Source of the DNA: Candidatus Bathyarchaeota archaeon
GTDB lineage: Archaea > Thermoproteota > Bathyarchaeia > Bathyarchaeales > Bathycorpusculaceae
Direction of reading: 5' to 3'
NCBI GenBank assembly: GCA_963717465.1
Contig: OY970340.1
Location: forward strand, 1,184,001 to 1,248,000
Length of the DNA stretch: 64,000 bases
The notes below the pieces were generated by a model. That model ran no database searches and was not told the origin of the DNA. It saw only the letters and a program-made list of their open reading frames with translations. Both the position numbers and the translations under genes were made by a program. Shown here piece by piece: positions 22,292 to 31,877 of this stretch (positions are counted from its first letter, which is position 1; every line of letters starts with the position of its first letter).

Positions 22292-23866
22292 TTGAGAACT
22301 GGAGCAAATATAGCTAGAAGGTATACTCGCCCTATAGCAACGAGAGAAGAATTAATGACAATCCATACTGCTGCAATGTTTCTATTGGAAAAAGTTGGAG
22401 CCGGGGGTATTACTCCTAAACTTCAAAAAGTCTACAAGGATTTAGGCTGCACCATCGCTGACGAGAAGAAAGGAATCGTAAAGATACCTCAAAATCTTGC
22501 AGTTGAAGCAATAAATGCAATACCAAGTGAGCAGGTTTTGCCAGGTAGGACGCCAGAAAACGATATTCTGATGAATGCCGGAAGTGGAAGAACTTTCCGT
22601 GGAGGTTTCGGCATCATGGCTCTATATTCAAAGTTGAATACAGATAACTACCATTTTGAATTCAGAGACTGTGTTGACGCTGACAATTGGAGAGAACAGA
22701 AGATTGTTGAGTACTTCCCAGAGTACGACATGACAAGCCCAATTTTCCTGCCGATGGACTTGGCGGAAGCTGGTTTGCCCGTTGATACTCATGACCTTAA
22801 CAGCACTATTCAATGCAACACGAAGCACATTTGGCACATTGACGCGATTGACCACATCGAATGTTACACTGATTTGGCTGCTGAGGTTCTTGGAGGCATA
22901 GAAGAGCTTCAAAAGAGACCGTTCATTACTAACCATGGTGATACACCAGGTTTAGTTTATGGCCAAAAGACCAGTGACCGAATGAGTGGAACGTTGGAAG
23001 GTTGGGAAAAGGGTAGGCCTTTGCTTATAGATCATACTGATGTTTGCATACCTGGGTTCCAAGGTCCATGCACCTTAACTGGAGCTTACGCAGTGACTGT
23101 TGCCACATCCGCATCGATGGCAGTAGGTTTAGCCCTTGGAAAGAATGGAGTTGCAAAAGGACATATCCCTGTAATGACCTACGACCTAGTAATGCCTATG
23201 GATCCATACACTCAAATGCTATGCGCTTGTGCAGATTCATTCAGTAAAATGCTGGCTTTGCACGTAAACTTCTGGCACAACAACTATAATTTACCAAAAG
23301 CTACCATGTGGCCCGCATGTAACGTTGGAGGTACAGCAGCTGGTGGAGACACGCAAGCAGGCCTTCTAATTTACCATATGTTTAACGCCCACCAATCCGC
23401 TACGGATCAGTGTGGAGTTTGGTCCACAACTGTAGGTCCAAACGGAATCTGGCCCGACGGCTACGCGATAGCTGCTGAACTGCTTAAGATGCTTTCGTTC
23501 TATTTCAAAGATTTAGACTTTTCTCCCGAAGCTTATATGCAGGAAGGGTGGCTTGCTAAGGGTCCAAGAGGCGACTTCATGAAGGATAAATACACTCTAA
23601 CACATATGGTTGACACTGGCTTCTATCCTATGCGTCATGGTTATGGCTTATGGGAGTTGAGGCAATATCTGCGTTGGATCGAAGATAAACTTGGAATAAA
23701 TGACCGTGCACACGCTTTAACAAACAAGATCGTTAAGGAGTTCCCTGCCCCACTACCACCAAAAGATGTAGCTGACAGAATGCATGCAATAATCGCTAAA
23801 TACGACAAGATGTACCAGATTGGCGGCTACACAGTTGACAAAGTAGGAACTGGTGCAAGATTCTAA
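22292..23866 (+). CDS. Divergent MttB/MtgB-family (trimethylamine methyltransferase superfamily) methyltransferase, no in-frame TAG
   Basis: IHTAAMFLLEKVG, GPCTLTG, KGPRGDFM..TL; followed by a corrinoid protein. Confidence 0.75.
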   Translation: MRTGANIARRYTRPIATREELMTIHTAAMFLLEKVGAGGITPKLQKVYKDLGCTIADEKKGIVKIPQNLAVEAINAIPSEQVLPGRTPENDILMNAGSGRTFRGGFGIMALYSKLNTDNYHFEFRDCVDADNWREQKIVEYFPEYDMTSPIFLPMDLAEAGLPVDTHDLNSTIQCNTKHIWHIDAIDHIECYTDLAAEVLGGIEELQKRPFITNHGDTPGLVYGQKTSDRMSGTLEGWEKGRPLLIDHTDVCIPGFQGPCTLTGAYAVTVATSASMAVGLALGKNGVAKGHIPVMTYDLVMPMDPYTQMLCACADSFSKMLALHVNFWHNNYNLPKATMWPACNVGGTAAGGDTQAGLLIYHMFNAHQSATDQCGVWSTTVGPNGIWPDGYAIAAELLKMLSFYFKDLDFSPEAYMQEGWLAKGPRGDFMKDKYTLTHMVDTGFYPMRHGYGLWELRQYLRWIEDKLGINDRAHALTNKIVKEFPAPLPPKDVADRMHAIIAKYDKMYQIGGYTVDKVGTGARF

Positions 23867-23890
23867 GGAGACAAAGAAGAAGGAATCTTT

Positions 23891-24544
23891 ATGGTAACTA
23901 AGGCTGAAGTACTTGAGCACCTCGCTAAAGCAATTATTGATTATGATGAGGATAAGGCTGTTGTAGCGGCTAAAGAGGCTGTTGAGAATAAGCTGGAGAT
24001 TATGGATGCTATCGAGAAGGGCTTATCCGTGGGCATCAAAGAAGTTGGTGACCGCTTTGGCCGCTTCGAATATCCTCTACCCTACGTGATTATGGCTGCT
24101 AATGCGATGACTGCTGCAGTTAATTATCTTAAGGAAAAGTATCCCAAAGACAAGTTGCCAAAGGCAAAAGGAATAGTTGTAATTGGTACAGCGTTTGGTG
24201 ATATTCACAGTATTGGCAAGAACTTGATTGCTGATATGTTGCGTACTGATGGCTTTGACGTTTATGATTTAGGTGAAGAGATTCCGACTGAGGATTATGT
24301 GAAGAAGGCTGAGGAAGTTCATGCTGATATTGTTGCAATGGGCGCATTGATGACTAGCAGTATGTCCTATCAAAGAGCGCTGGTTGATACATTGGTTGAG
24401 CGTGGTCTTCGTAAGAAGTACAAAGTGCTTGTTGGCGGTACTCCGATGACTGATGATTTCTGCAAGCGGATTAAGGCTGATACTTGGGGTGCAGACTGCG
24501 GTGACGCAATCAAGAAAGCACGAATGCTCGTAGGCAAAACTTAA
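23891..24544 (+). CDS. Methyltransferase corrinoid protein (MttC/MtaC-like)
   Basis: Cap domain, GDIHSIGKN, DLG, VGG. Confidence 0.92.
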   Translation: MVTKAEVLEHLAKAIIDYDEDKAVVAAKEAVENKLEIMDAIEKGLSVGIKEVGDRFGRFEYPLPYVIMAANAMTAAVNYLKEKYPKDKLPKAKGIVVIGTAFGDIHSIGKNLIADMLRTDGFDVYDLGEEIPTEDYVKKAEEVHADIVAMGALMTSSMSYQRALVDTLVERGLRKKYKVLVGGTPMTDDFCKRIKADTWGADCGDAIKKARMLVGKT

Positions 24545-27011: not shown

Positions 27012-27118
27012 TTGTGTCTAAAAAACTGTTTTTCATGCAATTTTGTCAATGGCAATCGTTGAAAGCCTTATTTTTGTGTCGAAAGTCGAAGCTGACCTAC
27101 AATTTAACCTTAAATATC
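27012..27118 (+). promoter_or_regulatory. Island regulon promoter, copy 2
   Basis: Same boxes at +24/+32/+62/+98. Confidence 0.8.
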
Positions 27119-27174
27119 CATTAGACCGCATTTTTACTCTTGTGTTAGAAACACGTAAAAAATAGGGGATAAAA

Positions 27175-29490
27175 ATGAGTGAGGTTAAAATTGAAACAGA
27201 CCCAATGAAGTACGATGGAGTGCATAGATGCATTTGCGGTTTCTGCAGTACTGGAACTTGCTTATTGCTTGAGACGGTTGAAAACGGAAAAATAACTAAG
27301 GTTGAACCTGACTGGGAAAGCCCGTTTAATCCCGGGCCCTACTGTGTAAAATGGAAGTATGCTTTGGAATACATTTATCATAAGGATAGGCCGACCTATC
27401 CGCAAAAGAGAGTTGGTAAACGCGGTGAGGGCAAGTGGCAACGGATATCATGGGAACAAGCGTTCAATGAAATACACGCCAAGATAAAGGAAATAACTGC
27501 AAAGTACGGTGCCGAATCAATGTGTGGCTTCTTTGGCACCGGCCGAGCCGCACATTTAGGTCAGGGAATGTACCGATACTTTTACTTATCAGGCAGCCCA
27601 AACATTGCTTCTGGGCAGGTCGAGCACTGAGATGGACCCACGTTCGCAGCGTTAACGACAACCTACGGCGTGGGAACTACGAATCCAATGATGATTCCAG
27701 GTAAGACGAAAGGTATCTTTAATATTGGCTCGAATCCTATTGAGTCTTGGACGTTTGCGTGGCCAATATACCTTGCGGCCTTGGAGGCCGGCGCGAAAAT
27801 GCTCTGTGTCGATCCCAGATTTACGGAGACTGTGCGAAACAGTGAATTATGGCTAGCCATCAGACCGGGAACTGACACTGCTCTAATGATGGCCCTAATC
27901 AACGTTACCATTGAGGAGGACTTGTACGACCATGATTTTGTGGAGAAATGGTGCTTCGGATTTGACAAGCTCAAAGAACGAGCTAAGCAGTATACACCTG
28001 AGAAAGCTGCAGAAATAACATGGATTCCAGCTGAGAAGATCAGAGAGGCGGCAAGGTGGATAGCGAAAAATCATCCGTGTGATTTTCCATATGGTTACGG
28101 CATCGAATCATCAGGCAGGAACTCTATGAGCAATGTCCGATCAAAATACATTATGCCTGCGATAACTGGTAACATTGACATAGAAGGCGGCGATTACCTA
28201 CATGCAAGACCGAAACAACATAATGGTCTGGAAGCCATGGTACCATCAATAAATTTGACGGATCAAAGCATATTTCAGAAAATGATTGGGGCAGAAAAAT
28301 ACAGAGCCGGAACCTTTACGTTAATGGCTTTGCTTATGGAGGCAGGAATGGATAAAGGATATTGGAAGGGCTCTCCAGTTCCTGCGTTCTCGGGACCAAA
28401 TTGGCCCGCCACTATAGATACTATACTCACGGAAAAGCCCTATCCGATTAAGGTTATGATTGCTGGTGAAACAGGTCCGATGAGGTGTTATCCGAACATC
28501 AAAAAGGTATACGAGGCTATAAAGAAGCTTGATCTCTTCGTCTACATTGAAGACGCTCAAATGACACCCGAAGCAATGCTAGCAGATTATCTATTACCAA
28601 CCACCAGTCAATTTGAGAGACCTTCTGGCTATTCGACTATTACAAGTCAAGGCGCCATGGAATTTGAGATTGCAGGTGATCGCGCATTACCCAACAAAAT
28701 ACCCGGCTTGTGGGACCTTAAAGATGACTGGAACGTGTTCCGCGAACTCGCAGTGCGCTCAGCTCCTGAGAAAATTGAAGAGGCATGGCCTTGGAGAAAT
28801 TTGGAAGAAGCGCAGGATTGGTTCTATGAAAACACAGGCTATACGCGTCAGCAAATTGTTGAAGATTGGAAAGGTGTGGCACCATGGGAGCCCAGGTTTA
28901 AGAAGTATGCGGAGCCAGACCCAGAGACAGGTCAGCCAAGAGGCTTTGGAACATTTTCAGGCAAGGTTGAACTCTACAGCCAGATACTTGAAAAACTTGA
29001 CTATAATCCGTTGCCGTACTATACTGAGTGTGCTTGGACGCCGATCAGCGCTCCTGACATTGCTAAAGACTATCCATTAATCATGACTAGCGGAGCCAGA
29101 TTCCAGGAGGCGCATCATGGCGAACTACGACATATCAGCTTGATGCGAAAGCTACGGCCTGTTCCACGTGTCAAGATGCACCCACTGACAGCGCGTAACA
29201 TGGGCATTGGAGATGGTGAATGGGTTTATATCGAGACGCCACTTGGCAGATGCAAACAGACAGTACGGTACGATTTCGGAGTAAACCCGAAGATAATTGA
29301 TCCAGAGCATGGCTGGTGGAGACCCGAACTACCCGCTGAAGGACCAACACTATACGGCTGGCAAGACTGGAACATTAACGTCACCGTGCCTGATGACCCA
29401 GAGCATCTTAGCCCAGAGCTTGGTGCATGGTGCTTCAAGGCTAATCTTGCAAAAGTATACTCAGCAAAAGTTGGACCTACGGGGCCATAA
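27175..29490 (+). CDS. Mo/W-bisPGD (DMSO reductase family) oxidoreductase with in-frame TGA at 27628 (candidate Sec)
   Basis: N-terminal CGFC..C..C [4Fe-4S], RPTYPQKR, VDPR, RPGTD, ADYLLP, C-terminal HPLTA domain; both listed ORFs are in one frame separated only by TGA. Confidence 0.85.
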
Positions 29491-29670
29491 GAAGAAAAAT
29501 CATAATCTTCTTCTTTTTTTGTTCTTGGTTTTCAATTAATTGTTTACTAACAAATGAATAATAATATATTAAAAAAGAAACCCATAAATCAAATTCCAGC
29601 TATTTCTGTTTCTTACTTGAATTGAATTTTTTTCATAATATTCATAATACTCCCAAAAGTAGATTGTAAT

Positions 29671-29851: not shown

Positions 29852-31877
29852 ATGAGTGTAAAATTTAAATACCTTTTCTCCCCGTTGAAAATAGGGCCAG
29901 TGATAATTCCTAACAGAATAATGTTAACTGGCCACGCAAATGCACACGTTGAAACACCGTTAGAAGGCCCAACAGCTCCTGGTGAACATTTGGCCTACTA
30001 TCAGGCTGAAAGAGCAAAAGGCGGCTGTGGACTAATATGCTATGGATACATCTCAGTATGTCCATTTGAGAATGCGGACAGCAAGTTCCATCGCGCACGT
30101 CTTGGTGGTGCGAGAATACTTGGTGCATATCCAGCTGGTCCTGATCCTAAGGTTATTCCAGCTTTTAAGAGATTAGTTGACATGTGCCACCCTTATGGCA
30201 CAAAAGTCTTCGCCCAAATAGGTGCTAGCGGAGTTTGGGAAGGCAGATGGGGACCTTCCAAAACTGTAGATCCAGAAGACCCAAGAAAATCAAACGCAGA
30301 AATGACTGAGGAGCAAATTGAAGCTGTACTTGAAGGTTATAGATTAACTGCCCAGAACGCAGTGAAAGCAGGTTTTGATGGCATTGAAATTCATGATCAC
30401 GGTGGCATGGTGCATAATTTCATGTCTCCTTTAACGAATAGGCGAAAAGACAAGTGGGGCGGGAGCTTAGATAATAGGTTAAGATTCCTTTATGAAGCAA
30501 TCAAGAGATGCAGAGAAGGCATGAACAGTGATATGGCATTAATTACTAGGCTTTGTGTTGACGAATTCATTCCCGGCGGAATAGGAGTGCAAGATGGAAT
30601 AGAAGTCTCAAAGAGACTAGAAGACAAAGTGGACGGCCTTAATCTTGACATAGGAATCGAGCCTACAAGCCTTAACGTTATAGTTGCTCCACTGTTCATG
30701 GAGCCTGGTTATCAATTATACGGAGCTGAAGCAGTAAAAGAAGTCGTGAAAAAAATACCCATAGGTTGTGTCGGTCGAATTAACGACCCAGTGTTCGCTG
30801 AAAAAATCTTAGTTGACGGCAAGGCCGACTTTATAGGTATATGCAGAGGTCAAATAGCTGATCCTGAATTCGCCAATAAAGCCAAGGCAGGAAGACTCGA
30901 TGACATAAGACCATGTATCTATGAAAATGAAGGCTGCTTTAAATCAGGTGCTGTACAATGCACTGTAAATCCCACGTGTGGTGTTGAGAAGTACTTGGGA
31001 ATCGGAACCATCACGTCTGCCGAAAAGAAAAAGAAGATACTTAGTTGCTGGAGCTGGCCCTGCAGGATTAGAATTCGCCAGAATTGCAACTATCAGAGGT
31101 CATAATGTAACCGTTTACGAAAAGTCAAACGATATAGGAGGGGCTATTAATTTAGCCATGAAACTACCGGGAAGAATGGAATATGATGGCTTCAAGAGAT
31201 GGCTTAAAATGCAGTGTGACAAGTTAGGCGTTAAAATTGTCCTCAATAAGGAGGTTACACCTGAACTTGTTAAGAGCGAAAACCCAGACGTTGTAGTGTG
31301 CGCCACTGGAGCTGACCCCATGCGAGACGGTGATAACGCGGGCGTATATTGTGCTATTGAGGGTTGGAATCAGCCGAACGTATGCGTAGGCGAAGACATT
31401 ATTGAAGGCAAAGTTGACATGAGCAAACTTGGACCACGAGTGATCATTTATGATCAAATTGGCTATGATGAAGGTTTGGGAATTGCTGAAATGCTGGCTG
31501 ATGCAGGAAAAACTGTTGATATTAGGGCTGCAGCGCATTTCGTCGGTGGTAATGATGTATTCATGACTATGCAATTTGCACAACTATACGAACGCCCTAT
31601 GTCAAAAGGAGTAAAGTTCAGTCCAATGTCGATGATGACATACATAAATGGGAACAAAGCCGGGTTCATGAACGGATTTAGCCATGAAATGTTTGAAGTA
31701 GAAGCAGATTCTTTTGTGCTCTGTGTGTCTAAATCGCCAAATGATGACCTATTCAAGAAGCTAATGGCAGCAGGATACAAACACAACGGCAACCTATACA
31801 AGATCGGCGACGCCAATAGTCCGCACAACATCTGTGACGCTGTTTACTTCGGTCACGTTTTAGGAAGAGAAATTTAA
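29852..31877 (+). CDS. OYE/FadH (BaiCD/BaiH-like) flavin Fe-S oxidoreductase, frameshift at ~31042
   Basis: LFSPLKIG..NRI, AGFDGIEIH, TNRR.DKWGGS..NR; removing one T joins to ILVAGAGPAG FAD motif. Confidence 0.88.

Follow-up and report, generated by a model that had tools for sequence, protein, structure and literature searches.

An in-frame UGA at the predicted metal-ligand position of acetylene-hydratase-like genes in a selenocysteine-using bathyarchaeon, and a candidate recoding hairpin within the coding region

Our analysis revealed that an acetylene-hydratase-like (AH-like) gene of the MopB superfamily contains a single in-frame UGA, which alignment, paralogues and Cys-containing homologues mark as almost certainly a selenocysteine (Sec) codon. 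The gene lies in a stretch of 64,000 nucleotides (nt), hereafter the window, of contig OY970340.1 (positions 1,184,001 to 1,248,000) from a Candidatus Bathyarchaeota archaeon; the coordinates of its features are collected in Table 1. A hairpin begins in the coding sequence 6 nt past the UGA. We consider it probable, from sequence comparison, that the gene represents a new family of Sec-liganded AH-like enzymes and that the hairpin is a coding-region recoding signal general to Sec-using Bathyarchaeia, the latter because the same layout recurs at the Sec codons of HdrA, MvhD and SelD. Papers are cited by PMC number throughout, for the portions of their text that were available.

The original prediction, made from the window alone, held that the frame continues across the UGA through an enzyme of ~770 codons. 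The open reading frames (ORFs) 27175..27630 and 27670..29490 indeed share a single frame, and the readthrough product has 771 residues (...GQVEH-U152-DGPTFA...). Three Pfam domains, Molybdopterin (PF00384, 1.5e-30), Molydop_binding (PF01568, 2.5e-11) and Molybdop_Fe4S4 (PF04879, 1e-07), match above their cut-offs, so that the oxidoreductase, dinucleotide-binding and N-terminal Fe4S4 domains of the MopB (dimethyl sulfoxide (DMSO) reductase) superfamily are all present; no NCBIfam model matched the protein at its cut-off. Of the solved structures, acetylene hydratase (2e7z) matches best, with an alignment over the full length (E 3.2e-105, residues 19-762 versus 4-725). By sequence, the protein is a cytoplasmic tungsten (W)- or molybdenum (Mo)-bis-pyranopterin enzyme of the acetylene-hydratase branch of the superfamily.

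The UGA was also predicted to stand at the metal-ligand site of the DMSO-reductase family, and the alignments agree. Residue U152 is paired with the ligand Cys of 'ymCign' in 2e7z, of 'slCtap' in PsrA (2vpw), and with the Cys/Sec-His position 'riCHs' of formate dehydrogenase (9vap). The 2e7z residue is presumably the tungsten ligand Cys141, assuming an offset of chain index + 3. Thus, the acetylene hydratase ligand Cys141 is replaced here by UGA/Sec as a variant ligand. The Asp expected beside the second Fe-S Cys of an acetylene hydratase is replaced as well: Ser25 adjoins this Cys (CGFC-S-TG), as the same Ser does in all Sec paralogues, at a position which we take to be that of catalytic Asp13 (again by chain index + 3). 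Since Ser25 stands in place of this Asp, the protein is not an acetylene hydratase (EC 4.2.1.112) in the strict sense.

Comparison within and beyond the source genome (G000; one contig, 3.05 Mb, 40% G+C) argues for Sec at this codon. TGA is an ordinary stop codon there: of 1032 long ORFs, 253 terminate at TGA, and a further stop follows at a median distance of 9 codons. A tblastn search found 11 paralogues with TGA at the identical codon, of which seven are intact at 70-73% identity, one is intact at 44-45% and three are frameshifted; it also matched one C-terminal fragment and one Cys paralogue (33-36% identity). Cys had been expected at this position in homologues, and among distant homologues it is encoded (TGT/TGC) at 51 of the 52 sites that could be aligned in 49 of 112 fetched loci; the remaining site has Thr, and none has TGA. 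P0012, a full-length distant relative, likewise has Cys ('SLTCYG'). Related-strain contigs from two DNA runs bridge the Sec site, and among the differences listed for them none falls at 27628-27630.

The Cys paralogue (L257:6825-9068; G000:C1:1817834-1820059, plus strand) has the 44%-identical Sec paralogue at a distance of 2 kb. It keeps the CxxC-D (Asp13-like) motif and 'SMCMGNT', and is therefore closer to genuine acetylene hydratase. The three frameshifted Sec paralogues, near 617.80 kb, 2798.70 kb and 132.72-132.77 kb of G000:C1, are either pseudogenes or products of assembly indels.

The database proteins closest to the AH-like protein, which come from other assemblies, have each been called as a C-terminal piece of 560-607 aa, and three of them cluster at 90% identity or more with G000 paralogues. 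A contig scan with P0001 found only distant relatives at up to 36% identity, apart from one 75-residue fragment at 41%, and a metagenome scan with the paralogue alignment found 80 loci at up to 44% identity, with Cys wherever they could be aligned and no close Sec relatives among them. The family was not found at E <= 1e-50 in 40 relatives (24 of the genus, 16 of the order), nor in G053 and the seven remaining Sec-using genomes of the same taxonomic family; in G149 and G207 the AH-like copies are all distant and lack the TGA.

The Sec machinery needed for the predicted selenoenzyme is present in the genome: tRNA-Sec, SelB, SelD, PSTK and SepSecS were all found. There are two tRNA-Sec genes (71.8 and 61.8 bits; cut-off 47), and SepSecS (488.9 bits) lies beside the first. 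SelD itself has a TGA at its HG-U-SCK site (L008; G000:C1:951672-952682). PSTK and aSelB are fused in two copies, each a single reading frame of ~730 aa. Both copies match aSelB_III, the archaeal domain III, and neither matches the bacterial winged-helix domains PF09106/PF09107, which bacterial SelB database matches do carry. Sec use is rare among relatives: of 41 genomes from the genus only 2 had tRNA-Sec, and of 401 from the class 12 had SepSecS. In relatives SepSecS adjoins a Sec-type HdrA-MvhD gene. The lineage, which the original prediction regarded as unexpected for Sec, is less so, because a Bathyarchaeota Sec system with the PSTK-aSelB fusion has already been published (PMC8762117, PMC9499178). 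The nearest homologues, by the names of their sources, likewise point to Bathyarchaeia, a pointer short of a phylogenomic placement.

The second tRNA-Sec and second PSTK-aSelB lie together on the minus strand (L251:11363-13725; G000:C1:2827363-2829725). This second fusion is 54% identical to the first, and no relative closer than 55% was found among 5.8 billion proteins. Its GTPase motifs are degenerate in switch I (RGxT), DxPGH (EMPGN) and NKID (SKID). The copy may serve as an adaptor without GTPase activity, or as a second channel of decoding. Among the 27 genomes of the genus that hold SelD, only G000 has the TGA; the other 26 have Cys (L008, L153-L178).

The hairpin was originally placed at 27637-27674, six nt past the TGA, and both the sequence and its folding agree. 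Taken alone, the window hairpin is only modestly unusual: over 50 nt it folds at -16.0 kcal/mol (z = -1.96; 7 of 200 shuffles fold equally well), and over 60 nt it reaches -17.1 kcal/mol, at the 2.6th percentile among 3000 in-frame coding windows drawn at random from the same genome. Comparison raises it above chance. A hairpin is found at the same place, 6 nt past the TGA, in 11 of 11 TGA paralogues. In the paralogue alignment 89% of stem cells are paired, versus 22-47% when the partners are slid; two-sided changes occur at five pairs, a count reached in 2 of 500 shuffles, and RNAalifold independently gives both the lower and the upper stem. The lower-stem codons, CCC ACG and GGC GTG GGA, are invariant in all seven intact close paralogues, against a background in which 16.6% of 391 degenerate codon columns at conserved residues are invariant, and three of them are rare in the genome (CCC 15%, ACG 15%, GTG 16%). 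The upper stem stays paired despite differing residues (ALGLG, ALTTT, GLELN). The 44%-identical paralogue has shifted its register by one base, and a change of GTG to GTT that goes with the shift retains the pairing. The Cys paralogue of the same genome has no hairpin (-9.1 kcal/mol).

The same arrangement is found in the HdrA-MvhD gene (HdrA2-type, NF040770), which has TGA at DCSI-U and at CNW-U and a hairpin 6 nt past each. In G000 the HdrA hairpin folds at -25.8 kcal/mol (z -6.0), which none of 200 shuffles equalled, while the MvhD hairpin folds at -22.9 kcal/mol. Sec and Cys forms were compared by their folding energy (ΔG, kcal/mol) over the 60 nt past the codon. At the HdrA site the UGA forms of 8 genomes range from -20.7 to -27.4 and the 50 copies of Cys forms from -4.1 to -14.5, a full separation; at the MvhD site seven distinct UGA sequences range from -22.9 to -25.9 and 41 Cys copies from -7.4 to -20.6. 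The Sec-using relatives (G053, G433, G326, G311, G435, G323, G282 and, in part, G445), whose HdrA-MvhD genes are 81-86% identical, retain the TGA and the hairpin at each of the two sites, and most of the changes fall in the loops.

The layout extends to other genes. The SelD genes of three other families (G039, G149, G207) have a TGA with a hairpin that begins 6 nt later, so that this spacer is common to the AH-like, HdrA, MvhD and P0254 sites and to these SelD genes. In G000, 13 Sec sites fall in the lowest 0.03-2.6% of the 3000 random coding windows, and of 469 ordinary TGA stops only 6 are followed by a fold as strong as -17.1 kcal/mol. Strong hairpins past ordinary stops were considered as further recoding sites and rejected, since those examined read through only 0-22 codons and are plain stops.

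P0254 (L251:6987-8237, minus strand) emerged from a codon-usage scan for readthrough ORFs, which was noisy on its own; with a hairpin filter added, it returned the known Sec sites and this one new candidate selenoprotein. The protein, which has no Pfam or NCBIfam match, carries TGA in 'FMMS-U-GCPMGH', with a hairpin 6 nt later (-19.6 kcal/mol), and a second TGA at residue 207. Its gene is flanked by those of a corrinoid protein and a RACo-type activator, and the second Sec cluster is 4 kb away. P0255, beside the second tRNA-Sec, was rejected as a selenoprotein because its TGAs lie upstream of the likely start.

The flanks of the AH-like genes offered no other signal. In the 11 paralogues, the 200 nt on either side of the gene gave an alifold energy of 0.0 with no consensus structure, and an Rfam scan of 10 loci (51 kb) found no family of the Sec insertion sequence (SECIS) at E <= 1, the single match being a spurious long non-coding RNA. 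A conserved promoter-like box, common to most paralogues ~60-70 nt before the ATG, implies a short 5' untranslated region (UTR); from its sequence and position, we infer that it acts as a promoter. All AH-like paralogues have a T-tract 15-30 nt past the stop, likely an archaeal transcription terminator in the window gene, and a tract so near the stop leaves no room for a 3'-UTR SECIS.

These observations suggest how the hairpin could work. The hairpin would be positioned at the mRNA entrance whenever the UGA is in the A site of the ribosome, and there it would favour delivery of Sec-tRNA(Sec) by PSTK-aSelB over termination, either by binding PSTK-aSelB or by pausing the ribosome. Selenium would then be inserted at residue 152, with the hairpin required for the insertion. 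A bolder version, to which we give an even chance, is that Sec-using Bathyarchaeia have a third Sec-recoding architecture, consisting of PSTK fused to aSelB and a coding-sequence hairpin exactly 6 nt past the UGA, accompanied in this genome by a second tRNA-Sec and by the degenerate PSTK-aSelB, which may be a dedicated adaptor. The original prediction had offered, as one explanation, an acquired gene with a bacterial-style SECIS. The position of the hairpin is indeed like that of bacteria; in contrast, acquisition of the gene is no explanation, because the series of UGA, 6 nt and hairpin recurs at the native HdrA and MvhD sites, and at SelD in other families.

Several results weigh against a recoding role of the hairpin. 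The hairpins of different families share no sequence motif; their loops differ (UAGGAUU, AACGAC, AAGUAUA and GUGCA), with no conserved apical-loop motif found, and neither SelB has a known SECIS-binding domain. No hairpin in the set is weaker than that of the window (z about -1.9; 6-7 of 200 shuffles equal it). The pair statistics are inflated, because the 11 paralogues are duplicates and the structure was derived from them, and since the stem lies within conserved residues (GPT...YGVG), coding constraint accounts for part of its conservation; another stretch of the gene is more synonymously constrained than the hairpin region. Distant Cys homologues of the AH-like gene fold equally strongly (mean -16.4 kcal/mol), although they come from GC-richer genomes and are therefore no clean control. 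The MvhD hairpin is rich in GC, and its fold is equalled by 15 of 200 shuffles. The G000 SelD fits less well, with a spacer of 9 nt and an ordinary 60-nt window; a long (~85 nt) hairpin past its Sec codon folds in G000 and also in several Cys-type orthologues, so that SelD within the genus was set aside as a control that does not discriminate. Finally, a ~40-nt conserved stretch (GCAAAGAAUU.G.UC.UGAG...GCGG...) directly follows the stop of HdrA-MvhD in 6 of 9 Sec-type genes (L240, L263, L264, L266, L268, L269).

The main rival reading accepts the UGA as a Sec codon and makes the hairpin only an auxiliary enhancer, similar to the Sec redefinition element (SRE) of eukaryotes, that slows the ribosome or hinders the release factor, while the SECIS proper lies elsewhere, in a UTR, in a readthrough transcript or in trans. 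The spacing of the SEPN1 SRE from its Sec-UGA is also 6 nt, and the lack of a motif common to the families, the lack of a recognisable SECIS-binding domain in either PSTK-aSelB and the conserved stretch past the HdrA-MvhD stop would all suit such an enhancer. However, this post-stop stretch is absent from G000, G311 and G323, which nevertheless keep both UGAs and both hairpins, and the AH-like paralogues have T-tracts straight after their stops, no Rfam SECIS match and no conserved structure in their flanks. We therefore regard the enhancer reading as rather unlikely, though not negligible. Much less probable is that the hairpin is a by-product, without any role, of coding constraint and paralogue kinship, with recoding that needs no local structure. 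Coding constraint is real in the lower stem, which lies within conserved GPT and YGVG residues, some shuffles of the window hairpin do fold as well, and some Cys-type SelD genes form long hairpins; against this, the lower stem keeps rare G/C-ending codons unchanged at each of its five codon positions, the upper stem is kept by two-sided changes across residue differences, the divergent paralogue restores pairing after its register shift through GTG to GTT, and the HdrA hairpin fully separates UGA from Cys forms (8 versus 50).

Two further readings concern the UGA itself. tRNA-Sec might decode it and yet insert Cys or another residue, for example by cross-talk of Sep-tRNA(Sec) with SepCysS in archaea without SepCysE. 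Such cross-talk has been raised for Bathyarchaeota-type systems (PMC8762117, PMC9499178), and the degenerate GTPase motifs of the second PSTK-aSelB mean that the system may be unusual; but SepSecS and a Sec-type SelD are intact, the PSTK-aSelB fusion is, by a published argument, what prevents this cross-talk, and keeping UGA and hairpin at 14 or more sites would bring no obvious benefit for Cys. We judge this very improbable. That the TGA is a nonsense mutation or a sequencing error, leaving a pseudogene or two genes, is hardly credible: gene callers do split the gene, and three paralogues are frameshifted, but the TGA stands at the identical codon, exactly at the ligand position, in 11 paralogues, both halves are under purifying selection at 70-73% identity, and the related-strain contigs of the two runs show no difference there among those listed. 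We thus favor the coding-region hairpin as the recoding signal, at the strength stated at the outset.

Table 1. Positions in the window of the AH-like MopB gene and associated features
Feature	Position	Strand	Basis or remark
MopB gene, acetylene-hydratase-like, 771 codons, one in-frame UGA	27175..29490	+	frame, translation, Pfam, 2e7z match
Peptide across residue 152 of the MopB protein			GQVEH-U-DGPTFAALTTTYGVGTTNPMMIPGK
Codons of the predicted N-terminal [4Fe-4S] Cys residues C21, C24, C29, C57 (CICGFCSTGTC...C57)	27235..27345	+	translation, 2e7z alignment
UGA, almost certainly read as selenocysteine U152, predicted Mo/W ligand	27628..27630	+	alignment, paralogues, Cys homologues
Spacer GAUGGA, 6 nt, from UGA to hairpin base	27631..27636	+	
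Coding-region hairpin, candidate SECIS-equivalent	27637..27674	+	lower stem CCCACG/CGUGGG, interrupted upper stem, 6-nt loop
Lower-stem arm CCCACG	27637-27642		
Lower-stem arm CGTGGG	27669-27674		
Stop codon TAA of the MopB gene	29488-29490	+	
Promoter-like box TTAACCTTAAATAT (archaeal BRE/TATA-like)	27104..27117	+	~60-70 nt before ATG, common to most paralogues
Shine-Dalgarno-like AGGGGAU (paralogues: AGGAGAU)	27164..27170	+	
T-rich tract, likely terminator, 7 consecutive T at 29514-29520	29508..29527	+	18-37 nt past stop

The neighbourhoods of the paralogues bear on the function of the enzymes. A winged-helix regulator adjoins paralogues, with an HTH_24 match in at least five cases. A reductase combining old-yellow-enzyme and Pyr_redox_2 domains lies near 4 of 10 paralogues, pairs of an MttB-like methyltransferase and a corrinoid protein near four, MtmB-like genes near two and short-chain dehydrogenases near three. 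Because these neighbour genes recur across paralogues, the neighbourhoods suggest catabolic units, each induced on its own, that act on compounds which are methylated or unsaturated, and possibly aromatic. In the window, the MttB-like and corrinoid pair lies upstream of the MopB gene at 22292-24544, and near-identical pairs (524-529 aa plus 217 aa) stand beside three other AH-like paralogues. The old-yellow-enzyme and Pyr_redox_2 gene follows the MopB gene at 29852-31877 as two overlapping ORFs, reflecting a pseudogene or an assembly indel; its copies beside other paralogues are intact (663-677 aa).

Two observations from elsewhere in the genome are recorded here. The island that holds the second Sec cluster also contains a divergent thermosome paralogue (L251:3197-4822, minus strand), whose best outside match shows 48% identity, and this island may be fast-evolving or foreign. 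ARAGORN, which reported only 38 tRNAs in the genome in total, called a 98-nt 'tRNA-???' with a four-base anticodon (ccgg) at G000:C1:904785-904882 on the minus strand, probably an intron-containing archaeal tRNA.

This study also provides insights into the diversity of Sec recoding. According to reviews, only bacteria have SECIS elements within coding regions, and those of archaea and eukaryotes are found in UTRs (PMC11227280, PMC13188914, PMC9499178). Archaeal machinery combined with in-gene hairpins would break this rule and give a handle on the evolution of SECIS position and SelB recognition; a third architecture, if true, would overturn the textbook placement of archaeal and eukaryotic SECIS in UTRs and may be the ancestral arrangement. 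Such a system would also have let Sec spread into a new enzyme family, with 11 AH-like paralogues that have a Se-W/Mo ligand. Sec as a W/Mo ligand outside the formate-dehydrogenase and formylmethanofuran-dehydrogenase branches would be new for the MopB superfamily, as far as the available text of a survey goes (PMC10100899). Annotation is affected as well: no fewer than 11 genes are wrongly called as two fragments, in addition to HdrA-MvhD, SelD and one unknown gene, and selenoprotein finders that look for an archaeal 3'-UTR SECIS would miss such genes. A compact in-gene signal working with PSTK/SepSecS-type machinery could serve engineered selenoprotein expression.

Among known enzymes, the closest counterpart is the acetylene hydratase of Pelobacter acetylenicus (2e7z), which is likewise cytoplasmic, with an N-terminal [4Fe-4S] motif and a ligand at the same position. 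Unlike it, the present family has Sec for the Cys ligand and Ser25 for the catalytic Asp, at moderate identity, and the residue after the ligand is Asp or Ala where acetylene hydratase has what we take to be Ile142. Among known RNA elements, the eukaryotic SRE of SEPN1 is a coding-region stem-loop a few nt past the Sec-UGA that only assists a 3'-UTR SECIS; the likeness lies in the place of the stem-loop, whereas no UTR SECIS candidate was found here. Searches of open-access papers and bioRxiv, as far as the titles and abstract openings listed go, yielded no Bathyarchaeal SECIS, selenoproteome or Sec-type acetylene-hydratase-like enzyme, and none is described in the available text of PMC8762117, PMC9499178, PMC5424206, PMC8211752, PMC11227280, PMC13188914 and PMC10100899.

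The elements of Methanococcales and Methanopyrus, with their GAA_A bulge, and the eukaryotic-SECIS-like elements of Asgard archaea belong to systems that share with ours the PSTK/SepSecS route and the selenoproteins HdrA, VhuD/MvhD and SelD. Those elements sit in 3' (rarely 5') UTRs (PMC11227280, PMC13188914), and the seven Asgard selenoprotein families include no MopB enzyme (PMC11227280). In contrast, a structured UTR element is lacking here: the UTRs are short and without conserved structure, such structure being confined to the coding sequence. The Bathyarchaeota Sec system of Mukai et al. (PMC8762117; PMC9499178) is alike in its fused PSTK-aSelB of ~731 aa and in similar Sec gene clusters; the main text of PMC8762117 does not contain the word SECIS, PMC9499178 in its available text does not link SECIS to Bathyarchaeota, and neither presents a selenoproteome there. 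G000 differs from the published system by its extra divergent PSTK-aSelB and its second tRNA-Sec.

The bacterial SECIS resembles our hairpin most closely in position. In E. coli fdhF (formate dehydrogenase H, Sec140), as here, a coding-sequence stem-loop lies right past the UGA, immediately on its 3' side, and Sec is the Mo/W ligand of a MopB enzyme; moreover, bacterial SECIS elements of different genes need not look alike (PMC13188914). The machinery, in contrast, is of the archaeal/eukaryotic type, with PSTK, SepSecS and an aSelB that carries aSelB_III in place of the C-terminal winged-helix domains by which bacterial SelB binds its SECIS.

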